DNA of 35,508 bases from an uncultured Gammaproteobacteria bacterium (GCA_964519355.1 CAZFJW010000002.1:1-35508); one strand, 5' to 3'. Positions 3,609 to 29,383 are shown, numbered from the stretch's first letter. Program-made: numbers and translations. Notes: generated by a model not told the origin, from the letters alone.

Positions 3609-4460
3609 CTAAAACCCGTCTTGTAAATATTTCCAGAGAATTCCTGCATCAAAAAGAGCGCGCCGCGGAATCATCAGGTTCTGCAAGGATTCGGGATAGA
3701 TTTGTTCATATGCACGGTTAATTCTGCTGAAATTTGACGGCGAGCTGGCGCGTACCCACTGAAGACTTTCTGATGTTATGGTCAGGTACAATTCTTCCAT
3801 GTCTGGTCCTAGGTGCCTGGTCTCAAATGTCCCCTTGATGAGTCCGAGTGAAATCTTTTTTTTCCAGTCATGCTCTTGTTCCGGGTGTTCAATTTTTACG
3901 GAAAGCGGATATATAATTCGCACAACATCACAAGGAATTTCAGCAAAACCTGCAATAATGCTGGCTGCGACTTTCTTTATTCCGCTGGCAACATAGTAGA
4001 AAGGTCCGGCAGGTCCCATAATTTCAACTATTTTTATTCTTTTTTCAGGATTTCTTTCACTGAACATTTCTTCAATGGTTCCTGCATCATCGGCATGATC
4101 TACAAAATTTTTAGCAATTCCCTCAATGGTTCCGGGTTCGTCAATTGGTTCTGATGCCCATCCAAGCTCGTCCTCGTAAGGTTTGGCAATGATGTTATTT
4201 AAGAGAACCCAAGAGAATTCTGGCTGACTGTTCACTGAAGGGAGAATATCAGACAGTGTAAGGTATGAGACAAGGGGTTTGTCTTTCAGACGCATTTTTC
4301 TCACTGCCATTTCATTGAGAGTTATTGATCGCATAAGAGGAGTAATTTGCTCTGCGATATGAGCCAAGAGATGGTCATGAGAAGTGACCTTTTTAGGACT
4401 GAAATGGGGAATGAAATGATCTGTCGGGTATTCGAAAGTAAGAAATGAAGACAAACTCAT
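3609..4460 (-). CDS. Hypothetical protein
   Basis: 283-aa ORF with no overlapping competitor. The segment YYVASGIKKVAASIIAGFAEIPCDVV is faintly ParB/Srx-like, but I cannot support a family call. Confidence 0.6.
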   Translation of the reverse strand: MSLSSFLTFEYPTDHFIPHFSPKKVTSHDHLLAHIAEQITPLMRSITLNEMAVRKMRLKDKPLVSYLTLSDILPSVNSQPEFSWVLLNNIIAKPYEDELGWASEPIDEPGTIEGIAKNFVDHADDAGTIEEMFSERNPEKRIKIVEIMGPAGPFYYVASGIKKVAASIIAGFAEIPCDVVRIIYPLSVKIEHPEQEHDWKKKISLGLIKGTFETRHLGPDMEELYLTITSESLQWVRASSPSNFSRINRAYEQIYPESLQNLMIPRRALFDAGILWKYLQDGF

Positions 4461-8706: not shown

Positions 8707-9498
8707 ATGGCAATCCCACCTCCAGCTAAGAAAAAAAAGGTTTTTCCCAAGACAAAAAAGGGAATTATCCGCCTTTTTATTGTTCGAACGATTGCAAATT
8801 TTTTAATACTTTTTACTGTCTTTGGAATAATACTTACCTTTGCACCAGCAATTTATTATGAAGTGTCATACCGCATGCTCAAATTGAAGGGGTACGAGTT
8901 TGTGTTATCTGACAATGCACTTGATTCTGAACTCAATAAAATTTTGGATCGTCAAAAAGCACTTGCATCAGGAAGTGCAGAAAAGAGCGAGGAGTTACCT
9001 GATATTTCATTTCTTGAAGCAATCCTTTCTGATGGTACGAGAGCTCAGATTACGCCGAAATCTGTTGATTTCGGAATTGTAATTCCCAAAATCGGTGCGA
9101 ACGAAGAGGTGATAATAAATGTCGATCCTGAAAATCAAGATCAATACAATGAGGTTCTCAAGCACTCTGTTGCGCATGCCAGGGGGTCATCGCTTCCCGG
9201 TCTTGGCGGCTCGACATATCTTTTTGCACATTCAGCCACGACTTTTTGGGATGTAGGGCGGCATAATGCGCTTTTTTATCTCATAAAAGATCTTGAAAAC
9301 GGAGACGATATTGTTGTGTTCTTTGACAGGAAAAGACACAACTATAAAGTGGTAGACAAACAAACGATTGATGCAGAAGACACACATTTTCTTACTACCG
9401 ATAGAGGAGAGGGTGAAGAATTACTCTTGCAGACATGCTGGCCTCCTGGAACCACGCTGAAGCGTCTTGTTGTTATTGCCAAGCCTGTTATAAATTAA
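8707..9498 (+). CDS. Sortase-family transpeptidase
   Basis: It has an N-terminal TM anchor, a catalytic His context (YLFAHS), the LLLQTCWPPG TLxTC-type Cys motif, and a downstream Arg (TLKRLVV). Confidence 0.8.
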   Translation: MAIPPPAKKKKVFPKTKKGIIRLFIVRTIANFLILFTVFGIILTFAPAIYYEVSYRMLKLKGYEFVLSDNALDSELNKILDRQKALASGSAEKSEELPDISFLEAILSDGTRAQITPKSVDFGIVIPKIGANEEVIINVDPENQDQYNEVLKHSVAHARGSSLPGLGGSTYLFAHSATTFWDVGRHNALFYLIKDLENGDDIVVFFDRKRHNYKVVDKQTIDAEDTHFLTTDRGEGEELLLQTCWPPGTTLKRLVVIAKPVIN

Positions 9499-9550
9499 GA
9501 CACTGCATTTCTAATCATAGCTCATAAGAGTTAGCATCATACTTAAAAAC

Positions 9551-9578
9551 TTGACATTTTCTTGTCCTGTAGTATAAT
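9551..9578 (+). promoter_or_regulatory. Near-consensus sigma70-type promoter of the GC-rich unit
   Basis: TTGACA (9551-9556), a 16-nt spacer, then TATAAT (9573-9578). Confidence 0.6.
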
Positions 9579-9634
9579 TCACAATAGCTTTGAGGGATGA
9601 GATACCTCGAAGACTTTCACAGGAGGGATCAGCA

Positions 9635-9751
9635 ATGATCCGTCACAACATCTCGACCAACACGCGCTCCATGAGTGGCTGCCACGACGGCGACGTCGAG
9701 TCGCACCTGCTCGTCCGCGCGACGCCGCCGGCCTTCGCGAATTCCGCGTAA
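9635..9751 (+). CDS. Candidate 38-aa miniprotein (MIRHNISTNTRSMSGCHDGDVESHLLVRATPPAFANSA)
   Basis: AGGAGGG (9621-9627) lies 7 nt upstream of ATG 9635. Hand-counted G+C by codon position is 21/38, 20/38 and 35/38. The ORF is too short for the ORF track. The start codon sits in the loop/3'-arm junction of the hairpin GGATC(9626-30)/GATCC(9637-41). Confidence 0.4.
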   Translation: MIRHNISTNTRSMSGCHDGDVESHLLVRATPPAFANSA

Positions 9752-9956
9752 GAACCCGGCGCCGCCGTAACCCTGTCAGAGCCAGGGAAACGGCACTCCG
9801 GCCCACAAGGCCGGAAACGAGAACGGCGTATTCGTTCACGTGACCCCAAAAGGGTCGCAAATCCAGACGGACTCGTCCGTCACGCGCATCGGGAGATGCA
9901 ACTTCGGGTTCGCCCGCAGGGAGTCTTCCCAACGCTCGAGCCTCCGGGCTCACACC

Positions 9957-9991
9957 GAGGCGGCAGTAACCCTGCCGCCTCTTTCTATTTA
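9957..9991 (+). terminator. Rho-independent terminator
   Basis: GAGGCGGCAG (9957-9966), loop TAACCC, CTGCCGCCTC (9973-9982), then TTTCTATTT. Confidence 0.75.
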
Positions 9992-10004
9992 GAAGACTTT
10001 ACGC

Positions 10005-10033
10005 TTGATTTTATCTTATAGTTTTGTTATAAT
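10005..10033 (+). promoter_or_regulatory. Consensus-like promoter with extended -10; leaderless geometry
   Basis: TTGATT (10005-10010), a 17-nt spacer ending in TGt, then TATAAT (10028-10033). Only 8 nt separate the -10 from ATG 10042. Confidence 0.6.
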
Positions 10034-10041
10034 TCACACTT

Positions 10042-10677
10042 ATGGTTTCTAAGCTATCAGCTTCTAAAAAATTTGACACCCTTGTTGTTTTGGGGAAAAA
10101 CCACAACATCGGCTGGGGCAAGGAAAAAATTGCCCGTGATAAATACAATCTCAGTCCATATTCAAAGATGAATGTACTTGCCGCTGGTGCATTGTATGTA
10201 AGAGGTTTTACCTCTACAATTATTTTTTCAGGCGGAGCAACTTCTGGTGAGGATATTCTTTCTGAAGCAGAAGCTATGAAAATATATCTTAGAACGAGAT
10301 TTTCAAATCATATGATTCCTGATAAAAAAATTATTCTTGAGGCCAGATCTATTAATACAAAAGAAAATGCAAAATATACAGGGTTAATTGTAAACGAATA
10401 CAAATTCAAGAAAATTGGACTTCTTACTCTTGGATTTCATTCAAGCAGAGCTGAAAAATTCTTCAAGAATGAAGGTATGAAAGTTACAGTTCTTCACGCT
10501 GAAGAAATAATTCGCGAATATGTAAAGTCGTACACTCCATATGTTACAAGACATCTAAGAACTCAAACAGTACGGTTTGAAGTAGTAAAGGAAAAAGTAC
10601 TCGGAAATATCATAAAAGTAGATAGAAATAATTATCTTTTTGGTGCACTTACTCGTCTCACCAGATCAGGTGCATAA
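10042..10677 (+). CDS. DUF218 (YdcF/SanA/ElyC-like) domain protein
   Basis: The pattern LVVLGKN...IIFSGGATSGEDILSEAEAMKIYL...ILEARSINTKENAKYT matches the DUF218 GG...SEA..M..YL...E..S.NT.EN layout. Confidence 0.75.
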   Translation: MVSKLSASKKFDTLVVLGKNHNIGWGKEKIARDKYNLSPYSKMNVLAAGALYVRGFTSTIIFSGGATSGEDILSEAEAMKIYLRTRFSNHMIPDKKIILEARSINTKENAKYTGLIVNEYKFKKIGLLTLGFHSSRAEKFFKNEGMKVTVLHAEEIIREYVKSYTPYVTRHLRTQTVRFEVVKEKVLGNIIKVDRNNYLFGALTRLTRSGA

Positions 10678-10678
10678 T

Positions 10679-11341
10679 ATGGGGAACGAAAGAGATCCAA
10701 TTTTAATAAAATTACCGCGATCGGCTCTTTATAAAGAACTTGGGGAAATTCCGGCAAAATCATCACGTGTTATGCTCGTATTTGGTGATGTGCCGCAGGA
10801 TTCAAGATATGTTCCACAAGAAGGTGTGTCAATTTATGATTGTCATAAATTTCTCAGTCATGAGTCAGCAAGAATTGCAGGAATTGCTGCGACGAGAGTA
10901 TTAAGAAATGTTGAAAGACAAAAAGAAATTGAGGAGCTTGCGAGGGAACAGAAAAGTCCAATGCGTGATGTAATTAATACCGGGCACGAACCGGCAATAA
11001 AAGCCCCACAACCATCTATTGGTGACATAATAATTATTCTGGGTGGTTTTACTCGGCCGAATTATCCGCCCGAATCCCTTGCTCTTTTTTCTGGGATGCT
11101 CCAAGCAGTTCCAGATCTTGCCAATCTTCGTGGCGTTGACATACATCTGGAAGGGAATGATCGTACGAGTACATATGCCAGTATGGATTTTGCACAACGC
11201 GTTATAGAAGCACAGGAACAAAGCAGGGGTCGGGACTTTGTTGAGTCTGTGTCGCTTGTATGTCCTGCACCTCGTATTCAGGCACTATCTATGGCTGCCA
11301 GAAGAGTGAATCTTCGTATCTCAAATGCTACTTCGCTATAA
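10679..11341 (+). CDS. Hypothetical protein, weakly DUF218-like
   Basis: The track ORF starts at 10640. I prefer ATG 10679 (MGNERDPIL), just after the upstream stop. IIIILGGFTRPNYPPESLA...LEGNDRTSTYASMDFA loosely echoes the DUF218 pattern. Confidence 0.55.
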   Translation: MGNERDPILIKLPRSALYKELGEIPAKSSRVMLVFGDVPQDSRYVPQEGVSIYDCHKFLSHESARIAGIAATRVLRNVERQKEIEELAREQKSPMRDVINTGHEPAIKAPQPSIGDIIIILGGFTRPNYPPESLALFSGMLQAVPDLANLRGVDIHLEGNDRTSTYASMDFAQRVIEAQEQSRGRDFVESVSLVCPAPRIQALSMAARRVNLRISNATSL

Positions 11342-11342
11342 A

Positions 11343-12446
11343 TTAGGCTGCAAGGTTGAATCTTTGATCCTGATACGGTCTGGCGAGAATTCTTCCTACT
11401 TTATCTAGTAATTTTGGTTGATATAAAATTCCCATGTGTGTTCCGCCCACTTCAGTTGCTTGGTTCGGATTTTGTGGCTGAGGAACTGTAGAATCGCCTT
11501 CTGTGTAAAAAGTTACAATTTCAATTCGCGGGTCCGGTCCACGAAGTGCATAATCGATCATCATTTCTTCAAGAACTGAAAATCCATCATATTTTTCTGA
11601 ACGCATTGGATCTTCGCTCATTCTTTTTTGAGCGATTCCATGCACGAGCCCCATTACTCCATTTGGCCGGCGTGCTGCGCTGCTAAATTCAGAAATGGTA
11701 TCTTGGGTAATTTCAGGACTTCCGCCCTTTATAACCGTATTTACAATCGGTCTGCCATGTTTTTGCAGCAGATGGTCAGCGGCAAGCTCCATGAACATGC
11801 CTCCAGCTGAAAGTCCAATTCCTGTAACTTCACGATTCCCCGCCTGAAATTCCAGTGTCTCTACAAGATTGAAAAAAGTTTCGGTTTGTAATTCATTGGG
11901 CTCATCATACCCGAACATTACATCATGTCCAAGCCTCTCGACCCATCTGTTAAAAGGAACAAGAAAATCATTTGATTTAATTCCAATCATAGCCTGCATC
12001 GCACTAAGATTAAGATTGCGAATGTTATGAATTGATTGAAAGAGTGTCTGGGAGAAAGGATCCTGCAAAAAAGCTGAGTATGGTTCTTGTATATAGTCTT
12101 CAAGTGCTTCGATCAGGTATTCCGGAGGGGGAGAGAATCCATTGGCAACAACAACTTTTTTGGGGTAGTCTCTAGATAATCCTTCACCAAAAAATATTCT
12201 TCTCATTTCAGTGTCAGAAGAAATGGGCATTTTATTGAATTTTTCCAGCTGCATTCCTGTTATTGCGCCTTCATTCGCCATAGAGCCAAGTAATAGTCCT
12301 ACTTCTGTTCTTCGAAAAGGAATTTCGAAAGGAGCCATGTAGGGATCAAATGTTTTTTCTTGAGAGGAGGGTGAAGACCTGAGAAAAGAAGGATTAAAAC
12401 CTGTATCGGCCTGAGGGGGAGGACCAAGTGTTTCTGTCCTACTCAT
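11343..12446 (-). CDS. Alpha/beta-hydrolase-like protein (esterase/lipase/thioesterase type)
   Basis: 367 aa with a GxSxG-like elbow GIGLSAGGMF and AT-biased third codon positions like the rest of the genome. Its stop lies 1 nt from the stop of the convergent gene. Confidence 0.6.
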   Translation of the reverse strand: MSRTETLGPPPQADTGFNPSFLRSSPSSQEKTFDPYMAPFEIPFRRTEVGLLLGSMANEGAITGMQLEKFNKMPISSDTEMRRIFFGEGLSRDYPKKVVVANGFSPPPEYLIEALEDYIQEPYSAFLQDPFSQTLFQSIHNIRNLNLSAMQAMIGIKSNDFLVPFNRWVERLGHDVMFGYDEPNELQTETFFNLVETLEFQAGNREVTGIGLSAGGMFMELAADHLLQKHGRPIVNTVIKGGSPEITQDTISEFSSAARRPNGVMGLVHGIAQKRMSEDPMRSEKYDGFSVLEEMMIDYALRGPDPRIEIVTFYTEGDSTVPQPQNPNQATEVGGTHMGILYQPKLLDKVGRILARPYQDQRFNLAA

Positions 12447-12465
12447 AAAAAATGCCTATTCTTGA

Positions 12466-12493
12466 ATCATATGCTTATCAGAGGATTTGTCAA
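12466..12493 (-). promoter_or_regulatory. Putative promoter of the hydrolase-like gene
   Basis: The minus strand reads TTGACA (12493-12488), a 16-nt spacer, then TATGAT (12471-12466). Confidence 0.5.
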
Positions 12494-12531
12494 GAAGGTA
12501 ATTGGAATTACAGATAGAAATTGAGGAATAT

Positions 12532-12542
12532 TGTAATATAAT
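12532..12542 (+). promoter_or_regulatory. Putative -10 region for the GC-rich cassette
   Basis: TGTAATATAAT includes TATAAT at 12537-12542. The -35 is weak. The GC-rich sequence starts within about 10 nt downstream. Confidence 0.35.
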
Positions 12543-12641
12543 CACCAGAGAACAAGAGTTTGAAGTGTGGCGTGCGGTCTCTGACTGCTGCCACAGGGAG
12601 AATGCTCGTTACCAATTCGTGATGAAGGAGAGGACTTTCTT

Positions 12642-12965
12642 ATGTCGATCTACTATCCCAAGCACCATGAGTGCGGTGGGGAGATCCAGATGTGGCCGAA
12701 GGGTTTTGGCCTGTGCCTATTGTGCGGATATCGCATCAAGCCAGCCGAAGCTCCCGATCCCAAATGGAGAGAGTTCAGTGTGATCCACATCCATCCGCCG
12801 ATCACCCAAGAAGTCTTGGATGAGACTGATTCGTTCAACGAGGAGCACCGGCAGAGACTTGATCTCGCCGGCCTCACGCCGAATCTCATCCCAGCAGTTC
12901 TTGAGATCGATGCGCAAAACCTTGAAGGCAGGGCTCAGTTGCCCTTTCTTCGGCCATCCGAGTAG
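12642..12965 (+). CDS. Miniprotein A (107 aa) with a zinc-ribbon-like HxxC...CxxC motif
   Basis: GAAGGAGAGG (12624-12633) lies 8 nt before ATG 12642. The sequence reads KHHECGGEIQMWPKGFGLCLLCGYRI. Hand-counted GC3 is 70/107. Confidence 0.6.
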   Translation: MSIYYPKHHECGGEIQMWPKGFGLCLLCGYRIKPAEAPDPKWREFSVIHIHPPITQEVLDETDSFNEEHRQRLDLAGLTPNLIPAVLEIDAQNLEGRAQLPFLRPSE

Positions 12966-12974
12966 GAGGCTGGG

Positions 12975-13223
12975 TTGGCGCTATCGCAAAATGGTCGGGG
13001 GCATGTTGTCCTGATTCTTGAAGACTTTGAGGTCGTGGCTCTTCCGCCATTTACTCGAAGAACCATCAGTTCAGAACTTGCCGAATTTATCGCGCAGCAC
13101 GCGCGAAGGACTCGGCTCAATGGAGACTGGAGAGATCGTGACCATCATGCCACAACCGGTGCGAACACCGGGGCCGTCCCTGCCGGGACTCATTCCTGGG
13201 ATCATTCCCAGGCCCCGGCGTAA
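12975..13223 (+). CDS. Candidate miniprotein B1 (82 aa, TTG start)
   Basis: AGGAGG (12964-12969) lies 5 nt before TTG 12975. The N-terminal half looks protein-like (HVVLILEDFEVVALPPFTRRTISSELAEFIAQHARR). It overlaps alternative frames from 13120 onward. Confidence 0.4.
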   Translation: MALSQNGRGHVVLILEDFEVVALPPFTRRTISSELAEFIAQHARRTRLNGDWRDRDHHATTGANTGAVPAGTHSWDHSQAPA

Positions 13224-13326
13224 TCCGACGCGTCCGCATGAACCGCGTCCTCGTCCAGGCGATCCCCAGGGACCAACGTTCCCTGCAGATCCGCCGCCAG
13301 GTGAACCGCCTTCAAGGAGGGGTTAG
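13120..13326 (+). CDS. Candidate Pro-rich miniprotein B2 (alternative frame)
   Basis: GAAGGA lies 9 nt before ATG 13120, and the TAG stop abuts ATG 13327. However, GC3 is only 12/30 over 13219-13308, which argues against this frame in its 3' part. Confidence 0.25.
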   Translation: METGEIVTIMPQPVRTPGPSLPGLIPGIIPRPRRNPTRPHEPRPRPGDPQGPTFPADPPPGEPPSRRG

Positions 13327-13330
13327 ATGA
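13238..13330 (+). CDS. Candidate 30-aa ORF B3 (MNRVLVQAIPRDQRSLQIRRQVNRLQGGVR)
   Basis: This frame has the highest GC3 locally (26/29 over 13223-13309). Its TGA overlaps the next ATG (ATGA at 13327-13330). No obvious SD. Confidence 0.3.
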   Translation: MNRVLVQAIPRDQRSLQIRRQVNRLQGGVR

Positions 13331-13449
13331 GTTGTCCACATTGTCTCGGGCGTATCCTGCGTGAAGCAGGACGCATGCCGCAAATCGGCGGAAATAATAC
13401 TCCGCCTCAACAGCCGTCAACACCACCTCCTCCCAAGGAGAAAGACTAA
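13327..13449 (+). CDS. Candidate miniprotein C (40 aa) with an N-terminal CPHC knuckle
   Basis: AAGGAGGGG lies 5 nt before ATG 13327. The product is MSCPHCLGRILREAGRMPQIGGNNTPPQQPSTPPPPKEKD. GC3 is low (17/40), so the call is uncertain. Confidence 0.4.
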   Translation: MSCPHCLGRILREAGRMPQIGGNNTPPQQPSTPPPPKEKD

Positions 13450-13450
13450 C

Positions 13451-13615
13451 ATGGGAATGACCGTTCCGCCACCAAGAGTATGTCGCAAGTGCCTGAGTGC
13501 GCTTGAGACGTACATTGCCGCGAATCGCCCCGGAGTTCCCACCTGCACTGGTTGCGGGTGGAGAATCGGGCCGAGAAGGTCTCGAAAGAGAAAAAGGAAT
13601 CGAGGGGATCCCTGA
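13451..13615 (+). CDS. Miniprotein D (54 aa): CxxC-x17-CxxC zinc ribbon with a basic tail
   Basis: AAGGAGAAAG lies 6 nt before ATG 13451. The product is MGMTVPPPRVCRKCLSALETYIAANRPGVPTCTGCGWRIGPRRSRKRKRNRGDP. An in-frame GTG at 13361 is an alternative start (track ORF 13361-13615). Confidence 0.55.
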   Translation: MGMTVPPPRVCRKCLSALETYIAANRPGVPTCTGCGWRIGPRRSRKRKRNRGDP

Positions 13616-13833
13616 TGCCTGCCATTCAAGGGCCACCGCCAAAATTTTGTCCCAAATGTCATGGGACGATGATTGTCGAGCACGACTGGCACGGTACCTA
13701 CGGGTACTGTATTTTGTGCGGTTATCACCACGAGGTGCTGACCTCGCCGCCTATCGATCTGGCGGCAGAAGAGGCGGCGCTGCCTCAGCGTCAAAGGAGG
13801 CGTATGCCCTCACATGCCAAGCAGCGGCTTTAG
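13615..13833 (+). CDS. Miniprotein E (72 aa): CxxC-x16-CxxC zinc ribbon
   Basis: GAGGGG lies 7 nt before ATG 13615, which overlaps the previous stop (TGATG). The sequence reads MPAIQGPPPKFCPKCHGTMIVEHDWHGTYGYCILCGYHH... The track ORF 13552-13833 is in the same frame. Confidence 0.6.
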   Translation: MPAIQGPPPKFCPKCHGTMIVEHDWHGTYGYCILCGYHHEVLTSPPIDLAAEEAALPQRQRRRMPSHAKQRL

Positions 13834-13857
13834 GGCCTGCACCATTCATCACGCCAA

Positions 13858-13884
13858 TGCTCCCCCGCCGCCAGCGGGGGAGCA
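13858..13884 (+). terminator. GC-rich hairpin terminator closing the cassette
   Basis: TGCTCCCCCGC (13858-13868), loop CGCCA, GCGGGGGAGCA (13874-13884): 11 perfect bp. An AT/T-rich tract follows a few nt later (CTAATATTTTTATAATTT). Confidence 0.7.
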
Positions 13885-14145
13885 CCATCTAATATTTTTA
13901 TAATTTCCGAGGAATTTTTAGTCCTCATCACTATAACCAGTACAAAGTAGAACAAGGAACTTTTCATAGAAAAAAATTCGCGCCTGGTTCGTCCCATAAC
14001 AACATTTAAAATTCCATTTTTAGCTATAAAAATTGCGCCGTTTTCGGTGAAAACAGGCGCATAATAAAAGTGATTCACTTGTACTAAATAGACACTACTT
14101 TGTATCAGTTGACCCTACCAGTAGTGTTGCGCATATAATGACTAC

Positions 14146-14411
14146 GTTCTTTCTTAATCCAGCTAATGAGGTAGTAACATACTTCATCTTCGGGACTAGA
14201 AGGTAATGCCAGAACACCCGGGGGCTACTGCCCACCCGGGAGCCGGCGAAGTTAGGATAGAAGTGCCGTCTTTATGTCTACGAGCTTGATACATAAAGAC
14301 AAATAGTAAAAACGTAAGTTGTCGTTACTTTTTACATTATGGTTACTTACTGTCCAAAAAATTTAACTCGATATTATTACAAAAACCAGCCATAGTTGTG
14401 CTGGTTTTTTT
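14146..14411 (+). ncRNA. Candidate structured leader or small RNA upstream of the TasA-like operon
   Basis: A possible promoter is TTGACC (14109-14114)...CATATAAT (14132-14139). Hairpins lie at 14217-14240 (GC-rich, bulged A), 14268-14300 (10-bp perfect inverted repeat) and 14306-14335 (11 bp). A terminator follows at 14381-14411. No convincing ORF and no riboswitch class recognised. Confidence 0.35.
14381..14411 (+). terminator. Rho-independent terminator (A-tract/hairpin/T-tract, potentially bidirectional)
   Basis: AAAAACCAGC, a 9-nt loop, then GCTGGTTTTTTT. It sits 70 nt upstream of ATG 14482. Confidence 0.7.
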
Positions 14412-27448: not shown

Positions 27449-29383
27449 ATGGCCGAAGCAGCACTACAATTTCCAGGCACAATGCCACAGCAGGGCGAAG
27501 TACCAGGAGCCCAACAACCACTTGAATTAGCAGGATCAACTATGCCTGGAGCACCCGTTCAGACAGAGGGCGGCCGTGGAGGTTTTTTGGGTAAATTATT
27601 TGGAAAAGGCGAGAAGGGCGCAGATGCTCCTGCAGCTCAAGGAATTTCTCCTATGACGCTTCCAGGAAGACCAGATATTGCAGCAGGCATGACAGACGTA
27701 GCTGGAAAAATTGGTCTGAATGTAGAGCCTGTTATTGGAGGAGCTCCAAGAGTTACGGTCCCGACACCTGATAGCGGCATGGTCATTGGTGCAGATACAC
27801 CTTCAAATGGAATTATTGTAGATGAGGGTGCGCCCAAAATAATTGTTAAAAGACCATGGGAGGGTGGAAGAAGACCATCTGGGGCACAGGCAGGTGAAGC
27901 AGCAACAGATAGTGTTTCACAAATGGCTGCTGGGCAGGCTGAATTCGCTTCTCAAGATGGCAGATCAGGTGATGTTGGACTTGGGAATACAGTAGGAAGT
28001 AATGAGTCTGGTGATCCTGCAGCAGCACAGTCAGCAGATGAAGTTGTTGCAGATGACACAAATGCAGCGGCTGGACAAGGTTTGGAAAATACTGGTGTAA
28101 CAAGCGGCATGTCTGAGACTGCAGCTGTAGTCGGAGACGCGGCAATTACATCGGGCGTAGAAGAAGTAGTACGCGATGAGTCAGCAGAGGATCCAGCCCA
28201 AGGAGATTCTGGTGAGCCAGATATGTCAGGAGTTGGAGTGCCCCCTCCGGGTGAGAAATATCCGAATATGGCTGCTCCTATGACCAGTGTCTGGAGTAAA
28301 CCAAGCGCGGGTGAGCCAAGTGTTACCTCAGATCCTGATTCAGGAGTTGCAGCACCTGCCCCAAGAGAATTAACACAAGAAGAGCAGGATGCTCGGGAAG
28401 ATAGAGAAGAAGCAGAAGCAGACAGACAAAAATTAATAGATGAAGGTTTGGGAGAAGATCCAGCCCCGACAGAAGGAGCATCTGGAGACACTGCGCCAGC
28501 TATTGATTCTGCAGCTTCTGGAGATGCACTTGCTGCTCAGATGAGGGATCAGGGAGTGATCACTGGGGATGGAGAGGATCAGATTATTAATGCAACTCAT
28601 ATTGCCGCTGCCCCCGAGACACCACAAGCACCTGAAATGACAGATGAAGTAGTTGGTCAGGCAGAAGAAACGGTAGATGCCAGCGCTCCAGCCGAAGGCA
28701 TGACCGCAGATCCAGTACTCGATACAGCAGAGGAACCAGTTTTACCTGCAGAGCAGCCAGTAGTTGTCGGTGAAGAGCCAGCTCAAGCTCCAGCAGCTGA
28801 GATGGTGTCAAATGCTACTGTTCAAGATGCTGATGATACCTCCGGACAATCAGAAGATGGTGCGTCTGATGATGATGGAGATTCTGGTGATGCAGTCAGT
28901 AAAGATCCATACAGAGCGGCAATGGAAAAAGATCCAGCAAATGATCCTGCAGCAATTTTAGAAGATCTCCACAAGAATGCTGCTCCATCAACAGTTGATA
29001 ACATCGGAAATGTTCTTTCTGGAATCAAAGAAACAAATCAAGCATTACAAGAAGAAACAGAAAGACTTGCTGAAATGCCATTGCGGGATGCAATACAGGA
29101 ACTGCGAAAAAAAGACGAAACACAAACACAACAGCTCATAACAAGACTAGCTTGGGCACATGCTTTTAAAAACCTTGAAAAACAAGGAATCACCACACTT
29201 TCTGCAGTTGAAGATACAAAAAAAACTATTGAAGAGATTCGGGGAATGGAAGAATTATTGAAGCTTTTTCTTGAAGAGTCTGGTGATCATAAGGGAGGGT
29301 GGGAAACAACACAAGGACTTACGCCTCAAGCCGAAGAGCCAAATGATCCATCAGGTGCAACACTTATTGCAACCGCTGCATAG
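27449..29383 (+). CDS. Highly acidic, Ala/Gly/Pro/Glu/Asp-rich (probably disordered) protein with a helical C-terminal ~130 aa
   Basis: 644-aa ORF whose composition is clearly GC-richer than its neighbours. No family recognised. TTGACT...TATATT (27437-27442) lies 6 nt before the ATG. Confidence 0.6.
   Translation: MAEAALQFPGTMPQQGEVPGAQQPLELAGSTMPGAPVQTEGGRGGFLGKLFGKGEKGADAPAAQGISPMTLPGRPDIAAGMTDVAGKIGLNVEPVIGGAPRVTVPTPDSGMVIGADTPSNGIIVDEGAPKIIVKRPWEGGRRPSGAQAGEAATDSVSQMAAGQAEFASQDGRSGDVGLGNTVGSNESGDPAAAQSADEVVADDTNAAAGQGLENTGVTSGMSETAAVVGDAAITSGVEEVVRDESAEDPAQGDSGEPDMSGVGVPPPGEKYPNMAAPMTSVWSKPSAGEPSVTSDPDSGVAAPAPRELTQEEQDAREDREEAEADRQKLIDEGLGEDPAPTEGASGDTAPAIDSAASGDALAAQMRDQGVITGDGEDQIINATHIAAAPETPQAPEMTDEVVGQAEETVDASAPAEGMTADPVLDTAEEPVLPAEQPVVVGEEPAQAPAAEMVSNATVQDADDTSGQSEDGASDDDGDSGDAVSKDPYRAAMEKDPANDPAAILEDLHKNAAPSTVDNIGNVLSGIKETNQALQEETERLAEMPLRDAIQELRKKDETQTQQLITRLAWAHAFKNLEKQGITTLSAVEDTKKTIEEIRGMEELLKLFLEESGDHKGGWETTQGLTPQAEEPNDPSGATLIATAA

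Follow-up and report, generated by a model that had tools for sequence, protein, structure and literature searches.

What is a GC-rich stretch packed with very small reading frames doing in an AT-rich genome? The locus that raises this question lies at positions 12545 to 13890 of a 35,508-nucleotide (nt) stretch of DNA (GCA_964519355.1, CAZFJW010000002.1:1-35508; hereafter the window), deposited as an uncultured Gammaproteobacteria bacterium. A reading made from the sequence alone (the sequence-only reading) had offered two answers, a module acquired horizontally from a high-GC donor or an undescribed small-protein system, and had allowed that the organism could be an epibiotic bacterium of the Candidate Phyla Radiation (CPR). 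Here, we find that the island is fixed and inherited vertically in a Levybacteria-like CPR clade and carries the predicted genes O1, O2a, O2b, O3, O4, and O5, the last of which was very probably captured from Chloroflexota. Both earlier answers survive in part: the coupled miniproteins led by Shine-Dalgarno (SD) sites are real and a foreign origin stands for O5, whereas one module from one donor is unproven, since O1 has no relatives outside the CPR clade.

A GC-rich island of coupled miniprotein genes

With 57.1% G+C, positions 12545-13890 lie about six standard deviations above all other windows of 1,346 nt (mean, 39.7%; standard deviation, 2.9; maximum, 50.9%), and their tetranucleotide distance is more than 7 standard deviations off the mean of the remaining window. 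Measured in 500-nt windows, 12501-14000 has 52 to 58% G+C against about 38 to 40% in most of the window, and in 100-nt steps the borders are sharp, with G+C rising at about 12550 and falling at about 13890. The G+C content of third codon positions (GC3) is 0.41 to 0.66 in the open reading frames (ORFs) of the island, or 0.52 to 0.66 without the 40-amino-acid (aa) O3, versus 0.24 to 0.34 in neighbor genes. The discrete compositional island and the AT-biased third positions around it, both described in the sequence-only reading, were therefore borne out when checked, and its G+C counts (40 of 60 nt in line 13201-13260 and 19 of 60 nt in line 9481-9540) are exact on recounting.

Judged by its sequence signals, the island would be read as one transcription unit of coupled miniproteins of 40 to 107 aa, running from a promoter through a leader, O1, O2a, O2b, O3, O4, and O5 to a terminator. 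We recovered the elements on which the sequence-only reading had built this arrangement, namely TATAAT at 12537-12542, the junctions TAG|ATG at 13324-13329 and TGATG at 13613-13617, and the 11-bp hairpin at 13858-13884. All five pairs of SD site and start codon are likewise present, with the one correction that the spacer from AAGGAGGGG to the ATG at 13327 is 4 nt, not 5 nt. The claim that no ORF exceeds 107 codons did not hold, as there are ORFs of 131 aa on the plus strand (13497-13892) and of 146 and 125 aa on the minus strand. We rejected these long alternatives as genes: against a relative they show 6 to 12 synonymous versus 26 to 36 nonsynonymous codon changes, and one of the three gains a stop in the relative. 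This substitution pattern indicates that they are noncoding.

Public gene calls place minus-strand "genes" of 144 to 229 aa across the island (window 13202-13794; L001 10557-11246; L005 5561-5995; L015 3644-4210; L023 1119-1802; L024 7876-8535), with O2b, O3, and O4 called in no locus and O5 in two. These antisense calls, which show noncoding substitution patterns, are a systematic misannotation caused by GC-rich DNA.

The operon is fixed in four CPR sub-lineages

The PBP2 protein of the window is closest (54 to 55% identity) to those of Candidatus Levybacteria/Levyibacteriota and "Patescibacteria group," its best named relatives, and the suspected CPR host is thereby confirmed. Four sub-lineages were compared, the window's own clade and those of the loci L024, L030, and L037. 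The loci share the gene order DsbA, DsbB, VTT, Sortase, DUF218, a 220-aa gene, the operon, SipW-like, RTX-repeat, MreC, and PBP2. Each diverged locus carries a GC-rich island (54 to 69% G+C) built on the same plan, consisting of a TGTA(A/C)TATAAT box, a leader, O1, an ORF in the frame of O2a, a proline-rich ORF (in L024 and L037), O4, and an O5 coupled via TGATG or TAATG. From these sequences, O1-O2a-O4-O5 appears to be the core of the operon, which is always kept, with O2b and O3 as its variable part.

In a multiple alignment of copies at 82 to 95% nucleotide identity, O1, O3, O4, and O5 remain open and keep their starts, stops, and all cysteines. O1, O2a, O4, and O5, together with O2b in L024 and L037, are found in the three further sub-lineages at 23 to 78% aa identity. 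Between the window and L024 or L030, flanking housekeeping proteins are 60 to 79% identical, compared with 71 to 78% for O5, 44 to 47% for O1, 47% for O2b (L024), approximately 30 to 47% for O4, and 23 to 28% for O2a. Since the same locus occurs in four sub-lineages whose housekeeping proteins have diverged to this extent, the island is neither recent nor strain-variable. The survey of synteny and conservation that the sequence-only reading had called for places it at the same slot in all relatives examined.

O5 was probably captured from Chloroflexota

O5 (72 aa; 13615-13833, plus strand) is coupled to O4 via TGATG and comprises a zinc ribbon, an acidic helix, and a basic tail (DLAAEEAALPQRQRRRxPSH). 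AlphaFold2 predicts a ribbon of three strands plus a short helix and leaves the basic tail disordered, at a predicted local distance difference test (pLDDT) score of 66. Over 100% of its length, O5 is 76 to 83% identical to NCBI and UniRef clusters named Dehalococcoidia, Chloroflexota, or Tepidiformaceae "hypothetical protein." It matches the signature of the 72-aa family, MPAxQ..PPK.CPKC...(I/V)VE(R/H)DWHGTYG.C(I/M).CGY.HEVLT.PP.DLAAEEAALPQRQRRR.PSH..(R/K)L, which has 48 invariant columns in a 16-sequence alignment. One exact Chloroflexota sequence was recovered on 986 contigs, and the index of the contig collection lists it in approximately 1,900 blocks. The Chloroflexota loci lie on megabase contigs from genomes of 66 to 78% G+C, and their proteins share 79 to 83% identity with O5. 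Homology searching returned clusters of this CPR clade and of named Chloroflexota only, with three small clusters on short contigs left unplaced.

An identity of about 80% across phyla for O5, set against about 55% within CPR for PBP2, indicates that O5 was acquired horizontally, and the sharing of the operon at the same locus dates the transfer before the split of the sub-lineages. The identity of O5, its distribution in searches, the foreign composition, and the GC-to-AT flux described below support a transfer from Chloroflexota to CPR, and we strongly infer that O5 was captured from Chloroflexota (Dehalococcoidia) before the four CPR sub-lineages split. The high-GC donor of the sequence-only reading is thus supported for O5 alone, and its lineage is Chloroflexota rather than the Actinomycetota that had been suggested.

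The Chloroflexota homologs share a regulatory setting. In 12 of the 12 Chloroflexota loci, representing three protein clusters, the cyclic di-AMP (c-di-AMP; ydaO) riboswitch RF00379 lies directly upstream of the O5 homolog, with covariance-model scores of 75 to 91 bits (gathering threshold, 38). The homolog is a stand-alone gene 40 to 120 nt downstream of the full-length RF00379 (L031 9837-9972; L036 7873-8002; L032-L035; L038-L043, approximately 3775-3922), and in L038 the aptamer is followed by a terminator-like hairpin and a T-run. The Chloroflexota homologs of O5 therefore belong to a c-di-AMP-controlled regulon. No RF00379 was detected in the window from 9400 to 14100, even at E = 10, nor in L024, L030, or L037. 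Instead of standing alone behind RF00379, O5 closes a polycistron in all four CPR sub-lineages, the window's own included.

Described members of c-di-AMP riboswitch regulons are mostly potassium/osmolyte transporters and cell-wall enzymes, and to our knowledge they do not include a cytoplasmic zinc-ribbon protein of 72 aa. The Chloroflexota O5 homologs resemble members of the c-di-AMP (ydaO/yuaA, RF00379) regulon in sitting behind a full-length aptamer, whereas the operon in the window has no RF00379 and an unrelated leader. We found no literature linking the c-di-AMP riboswitch to a zinc-ribbon protein. As to the genes around the Chloroflexota homologs, two of the three clusters have H+-pyrophosphatase genes upstream, and in the Tepidiformaceae cluster the surrounding genes encode two acetyltransferases, a PQ-loop protein, an ABM protein, and a LuxR-type response regulator.

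Promoter, leader, and terminator of the CPR operon

The promoter-like site of the operon (12515-12542, plus strand) joins the -10 element TATAAT (12537-12542) to a weak -35-like TAGAAA (12515-12520) and scores 10 of 12 matches in a promoter scan. The leader alignment and the L037 sequence show that its TGTA(A/C)TATAAT motif is kept in all four sub-lineages. Multiple alignment and cross-lineage comparison delimit a 5' leader of approximately 97 nt (12545-12641, plus strand), which is almost unchanged among close relatives that are otherwise 82 to 95% identical.

Two elements can be distinguished within it. The hairpin P1 (12566-12595, plus strand), recognized by cross-lineage pairing, pairs UGUGGC/GCCACA in the window, CGUGGC/GCCACG in L030, CGCGGCG/CGCCGCG in L024, and CGCGGC/GCCGCG in L037; its sequence thus varies between sub-lineages with the pairing kept, that is, by compensatory changes. 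The second is an invariant 27-nt element, GCTCGTTACCAATTCGTGATGAA(A)GGAG (12604-12630, plus strand), that ends in the SD of O1. It has a single occurrence in the window, with 0 expected by chance, and is present, a single time per locus, in 28 of the 28 CPR loci compared plus L037 and in none of 8 other loci. Its predicted fold is a 7-bp hairpin (UCGUUAC-CAAUUC-GUGAUGA) next to the SD of O1. Even positions that could vary silently, whichever frame were translated, are unchanged, which points to a control element acting at the RNA or DNA level. A leader peptide, ARYQFVMK, was considered for this element and is unlikely: third positions are invariant, the downstream frame is lineage-specific, and no SD precedes it. 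By sequence comparison, the CPR leader appears to be lineage-specific and unrelated to the c-di-AMP riboswitch.

At the 3' border of the island, the 11-bp GC hairpin (13858-13884) is followed by an A/T-rich stretch with a T-run, together forming an intrinsic-terminator-like feature (13858-13897, plus strand). An equivalent hairpin is present in L024; the contigs of L030 and L037 stop within or just after O5. A simple terminator scan does not list the hairpin because the T-run lies more than 2 nt past the stem. Farther downstream, at approximately 14095-14300 (plus strand) and in L024 at approximately 8860-9080, a conserved promoter-like TTGAC-N-TATAAT precedes a short stretch of about 53% G+C. 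This stretch lies upstream of genes for camelysin (Peptidase_M73) and a SipW-like signal peptidase; its conservation extends to diverged sub-lineages, and it may represent a leader or a small RNA.

Partner proteins and the zinc-ribbon class

O4 (54 aa; 13451-13615, plus strand) is a predicted zinc ribbon with a very basic tail, RSRKRKRNR, and is kept in all sub-lineages. The 72-aa O4 of L030 matches O5 in BLASTP with 53% identity over 32 residues (E = 4e-11), and the O4 and O5 profiles align with an hhalign probability of 89% (E = 2e-6). These matches indicate that O4 arose by duplication of O5 and has since diverged. For the O1 ribbon, similarity to the O5 profile is weak (44% probability).

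O1 (107 aa; 12642-12965, plus strand; G+C at codon positions 1/2/3, 0.60/0.39/0.66) combines an N-terminal zinc ribbon (His/Cys...CxxC) with a C-terminal helical hairpin, as modeled by AlphaFold2 at a pLDDT of 84. It is intact in all relatives, and the close relatives form one cluster at 90% identity. An exhaustive HMMER search with the O1 profile over 1.84 billion representative proteins returned only three further true homologs, P0020, P0021, and P0023, at about 45% identity, all in the same syntenic slot of more diverged CPR genomes (L024-L030, L037), and no relative outside this CPR clade; O2a, O2b, and O3, which were never searched against protein databases, are recognized only there as well. 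Two other matches, P0022 and P0024, are repeat-driven and were discarded. Neither O1 nor the DUF218 neighbor retrieved a relative from the GTDB species representatives. A metagenome scan with O1 gave two 11-residue matches in a high-GC organism, which were rejected as chance: the exact match to WPKGFGLCLLC of O1 in L003 (3971-4114) and L004 sits in a short ORF in an unrelated context and was judged a chance extension of an 8-residue search pattern.

The middle of the operon is less stable. O2a (82 aa; 12975-13223, plus strand) starts with TTG behind AGGAGG and evolves fast around a conserved PFxRRxI motif; its frame and this motif can be aligned over the four sub-lineages. In the other sub-lineages it has a GTG start that overlaps or abuts the end of O1, with the SD inside the O1 end in L024 and L030. 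The proline-rich O2b (68 aa; 13120-13326, plus strand) runs across the 3' end of O2a in a different frame. Its homologs are L024 8083-8268 (47% identity) and the C-terminal body of a 79-aa L037 protein. The ORF that begins mechanically at 13018 is homologous only from Met35 on, with no conservation of 13018-13119, and O2b was therefore placed at 13120-13326. O3 (40 aa; 13327-13449, plus strand) has a single CxxC and a proline-rich tail and is absent in L024 and L030. In L037, one fused protein, the 79-aa homolog just mentioned, joins an O3-like N terminus (MGCSHCLGRILRNAG...) to the O2b body. The homology and this fusion mark O2b and O3 as real, related, and rearranged modules. The overlap of O2a and O2b spans about 104 nt in the window's clade; L024 has no overlap, and the proline-rich ORF is missing in L030. 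Among close relatives, indels of 1, 2, 3, and 27 nt occur between O1 and O3, and the operon middle is being remodeled by indels and reading-frame extension.

Two-knuckle zinc motifs, seen by the sequence-only reading in at least three products, are present in O1 (H/C...CxxC), O4, and O5, with one CxxC only in O3. The ligands are invariant across lineages in O1, O4, and O5, and the AlphaFold2 models of O1 and O5 contain beta-ribbons. O1, O4, and O5 thus fit the zinc-ribbon structural class in their predicted features, with two CxxC (or HxC) knuckles and a three-stranded sheet, and zinc binding is predicted for them.

Comparison with known families

As the sequence-only reading had noted, no family can be recognized, since no ORF passes the cutoff in Pfam, NCBIfam, PHROGs, or PADLOC. 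Subthreshold matches of O5 are to Zn_ribbon_RPB9 (PF02150, 23.2 bits versus 25.2), TFIIB (PF08271, 20.2 versus 29), and TFS (TIGR01384, 18.7 versus 64.75), and represent a resemblance in fold class only. Foldseek against the PDB and PDB profile searches gave no significant neighbor, with weak matches to the ribbons of RPC10, RPB9, TFS, TFIIB, Elf1, Spt4, and ZifS. None of the six ORFs matches a PADLOC defense-system model at E <= 1, the best PHROG match is a generic zinc ribbon and not significant (E = 0.0035), and no zinc-ribbon ribosomal protein (bL32, bL33, bL36, bS14, and similar) is listed for any ORF at E <= 1 in Pfam or NCBIfam.

The nearest comparison is with the ribbons of the transcription machinery (RPB9/RPC10/TFS, TFIIB, Elf1, Spt4) and with ZifS (PDB 8yoz), which share the three-stranded CxxC...CxxC fold and the size of O5 and O4 and are their top neighbors in Pfam, NCBIfam, Foldseek, and PDB profiles. 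However, all matches stay below thresholds (23.2 versus 25.2 bits; Foldseek E >= 0.09), and none of RPB9, TFS, TFIIB, Elf1, Spt4, and ZifS has anything corresponding to the conserved acidic-helix/basic-tail extension of O5 or to the helical hairpin of O1. Our literature search found nothing usable on ZifS. Ribosomal-protein operons resemble the locus in their coupled small basic/zinc-ribbon proteins and in a structured 5' leader overlapping the first SD, but no sequence relation to ribosomal protein families exists, and autoregulation is here a hypothesis.

Several other identities were tried and rejected. With Rfam 15, the window yields two tRNAs at gathering scores and nothing else, and 9400-14100 shows only chance-level matches at E <= 10, which speaks against rRNA or a known RNA. 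A phage or plasmid origin found no support in blastn and tblastn searches of INPHARED and PLSDB or in scans of IMG/VR with O1 and O5 profiles. A ribosomally synthesized and modified peptide (RiPP) or toxin-antitoxin system was set aside, as no modifying enzymes or partner genes lie nearby.

Composition history of the island

Between the window and L024 or L030, four-fold degenerate sites are saturated, with an identity of 0.24 in the island versus 0.26 for random sites and of 0.33 in the flanks versus 0.27. We did not find excess synonymous conservation in the island as a sign of RNA constraint, and saturation without such an excess argues against a conserved RNA architecture over the coding part. 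The G+C content of four-fold sites (GC4) is nevertheless 0.54 to 0.60, versus 0.29 to 0.43 in the flanks. Among close relatives, polarized singleton changes reveal a net GC-to-AT flux in the island (86 versus 56; p = 0.015) and a balance in the flanks (50 versus 62), which suggests that the island is still ameliorating.

Island and neighbor proteins also differ in residue share: proline, 14.4% versus 3.5%; arginine, 9.7% versus 4.2%; cysteine, 3.1% versus 0.6%; and lysine, 2.8% versus 7.5%. The high G+C content is thus in part protein-inherent, through abundant Pro, Arg, Gly, and Cys and scarce Lys, and in part, as far as can be inferred, a slowly decaying foreign ancestry. Some selection for G+C may slow the decay. 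A third GC-elevated region, a 644-aa ORF without a Pfam domain at 27449-29383 (plus strand; 49 to 51% G+C), serves as an internal control. Its G+C at first codon positions is 0.69 and its GC3 0.25, the native codon usage, so that its G+C stems from amino acid makeup.

A probable structured RNA nearby and a gene-turnover hotspot

A second GC-rich island, Island A (9551-9985, plus strand; about 65% G+C), also occurs at L001 7017-7345, L015 158-563, and L019 1-200. Its promoter is a perfect TTGACA-16-TATAAT (9551-9578), and its terminator spans 9957-9981. Its 406-nt RNA (9580-9985) is predicted to fold into about a dozen consecutive GC-rich hairpins (minimum free energy, -185 kcal/mol; z = -7.5). 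Among relatives, one hairpin is swapped for another sequence that still pairs, with four compensatory pairs; indels of 29 and 46 nt delete entire hairpins, and the last 110 nt at the 3' end do not vary. No Rfam match was found for Island A, which is probably a novel structured noncoding RNA limited to the window's own sub-clade. Between sortase and DUF218, where the window has Island A, other loci carry an AT-rich gene of 227 to 336 aa (L019 252-1262; L027 126-860; L030 2653-3336), which in L019 adjoins what is left of Island A. The sortase-DUF218 interval is a hotspot of gene turnover.

Proposed history and competing explanations

The account that we consider probable, if by no means secure, is that of a clade-fixed miniprotein operon that arose around a captured O5 by duplication and acquisition of a new leader and whose products act as regulators or adaptors. 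O5 would have been taken up from Chloroflexota (Dehalococcoidia), where it is monocistronic behind the c-di-AMP (ydaO) riboswitch. The zinc-ribbon gene would then have been duplicated to give O4 and possibly also the ribbon of O1, and the captured gene would have been joined to the clade-restricted O1 and to the fast-evolving O2a and O2b/O3. The riboswitch would have been replaced by the lineage-specific leader, with its covarying hairpin and its invariant element ending in the O1 SD. The products, probably made in fixed proportions and acting together, might be cytoplasmic zinc-ribbon adaptors or regulators working on nucleic acid or on a large machine (RNA polymerase, ribosome). O5 could perform the task that it has in Chloroflexota, where its expression would follow c-di-AMP and with it osmotic, potassium, or cell-envelope status. 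Translation or mRNA stability would likely be controlled at the invariant leader element, to which one of the proteins encoded in the operon might bind.

Several observations weigh against this account. The direction of the O5 transfer rests on distribution and composition, and the tree does not resolve it: for a protein of 72 aa, the CPR copies form no clean clade by neighbor joining and sit on long branches, with the Chloroflexota copies nearly identical to one another. The GC4 of the island exceeds a rough expectation under neutral amelioration (approximately 0.47 or less), so that either the transfer or replacement is younger than synteny suggests or G+C is partly held by selection. The island mRNA is mildly over-structured (mean z of about -1.6 versus about 0 in the flanks). 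Purifying selection is weak in close comparisons (synonymous versus nonsynonymous changes, 11 versus 12 in O1 and 7 versus 9 in O4), and the O2a/O2b overlap and the O2b/O3 rearrangements make for an evolutionarily fluid operon middle. The functional part rests on fold class and the donor-side riboswitch, with a best Foldseek E of about 0.09 and Pfam scores below gathering.

An en bloc transfer of the whole operon from an unsampled high-GC donor or its mobile element, with O1 to O4 as donor genes, would fit the GC-rich, Arg/Pro-rich makeup common to all ORFs and the coincidence of the composition borders with promoter and terminator, and miniproteins at 23 to 47% within-clade identity would soon evade detection. 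We nonetheless regard it as unlikely: the only true relatives of O1 in the large profile search lie in syntenic CPR loci, O4 is explained by duplication of O5, and phage, plasmid, or viral-contig relatives are lacking. The called neighbors in the 12 Chloroflexota loci, moreover, differ between clusters and are unlike the CPR partners in size and domains, although sequence similarity to O1-O4 was untested there. A recent, strain-variable accessory module derived from a phage or mobile element, serving anti-defense or host manipulation, would suit the atypical composition. Small, packed, SD-led zinc-ribbon ORFs without a known family are typical of phage early and anti-defense regions, and CPR episymbionts do carry genomic islands (PMC12455944). 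Yet no integrase, transposase, or flanking repeat turned up on searching the nearby genes and flanks, as the sequence-only reading had already seen, and no tRNA lies closer than 6 kb. All four diverged sub-lineages have the island in one and the same position, and O5 is a core-like chromosomal gene with its own riboswitch in Chloroflexota. With no significant PHROG or PADLOC match and no sign of phage or plasmid relatives in INPHARED, PLSDB, or IMG/VR, the phage vehicle proposed earlier found no backing, and we hold this explanation to be very unlikely. Anti-defense or host-manipulation roles are pure speculation.

GC-rich islands in AT-rich genomes are a classic signature of structured RNA, Island A next door is probably such a case, the operon island folds slightly better than shuffled sequence throughout, and its G+C persists at saturated four-fold sites. 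That the island is mainly a large noncoding RNA, or a transcript serving as both RNA and mRNA, is nevertheless highly improbable. ORFs, starts, SD sites, coupling, and Cys ligands are kept across lineages while synonymous sites are randomized, O5 is an annotated protein family in Chloroflexota, no Rfam match appears even at E = 10, and the z scores are modest beside that of Island A. Finally, GC-rich DNA keeps spurious long ORFs open, as in the minus-strand calls, and frame-disrupting indels separate relatives in the O2 region, so that a chimeric assembly or the frameshifted fragments of one longer gene had to be considered. Here both junctions recur in more than 20 contigs, built by different assemblers from independent samples, ten of them at 99 to 100% identity, which excludes an assembly chimera. 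The fragmented longer gene, raised in the sequence-only reading as a possible refutation, fails because no homology to a longer protein exists in Pfam, NCBIfam, the PDB, or, for O1 and O5, large protein databases. Each ORF keeps its own SD and start in distant lineages, and the long alternative ORFs evolve as noncoding sequence; artifact and decay are effectively refuted.

Significance

The clade-fixed miniprotein operon defines a conserved polycistronic system in a CPR lineage that automated annotation miscalls, and we found no description in the literature of such an operon around a captured c-di-AMP-regulon gene. Cross-phylum transferred genes and genomic islands are known in Patescibacteria, and Table 1 of the work describing them does not list Chloroflexota as a donor phylum (PMC12455944). 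Like those islands, the one described here is DNA of foreign composition from a donor of another phylum in a streamlined CPR genome. Unlike them, it is only 1.35 kb long, lacks mobility genes, is ancient and clade-fixed, encodes miniproteins only, and has probably been remodeled by duplication and a new leader. Such an old transfer from Chloroflexota to CPR, followed by duplication, recruitment of partners, and replacement of the regulatory RNA, would be a rare remodeling that can be traced step by step in a streamlined symbiont, and it hints at a Chloroflexota association of this CPR clade. The persistence of a G+C content of about 0.6 at saturated synonymous sites poses a small puzzle of amelioration or mRNA selection.

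For Chloroflexota, an abundant and very conserved 72-aa "hypothetical protein" under a c-di-AMP riboswitch emerges as a regulon member that is neither transporter nor enzyme. Tepidiforma strains are in culture, which makes the link between O5 and the riboswitch directly testable. A bolder reading, which we think doubtful, is that the O5 family is an overlooked protein effector of c-di-AMP signaling, a zinc-ribbon regulator gated by the riboswitch and kept throughout Dehalococcoidia, that a CPR episymbiont lineage captured from a Chloroflexota partner, amplified into a complex of the paralogs O1, O4, and O5 with proline-rich partners, and placed under a new RNA leader. If this were true, the symbiont would have gained a host-type regulator of stress or envelope, or a mimic that interferes with the host pathway.

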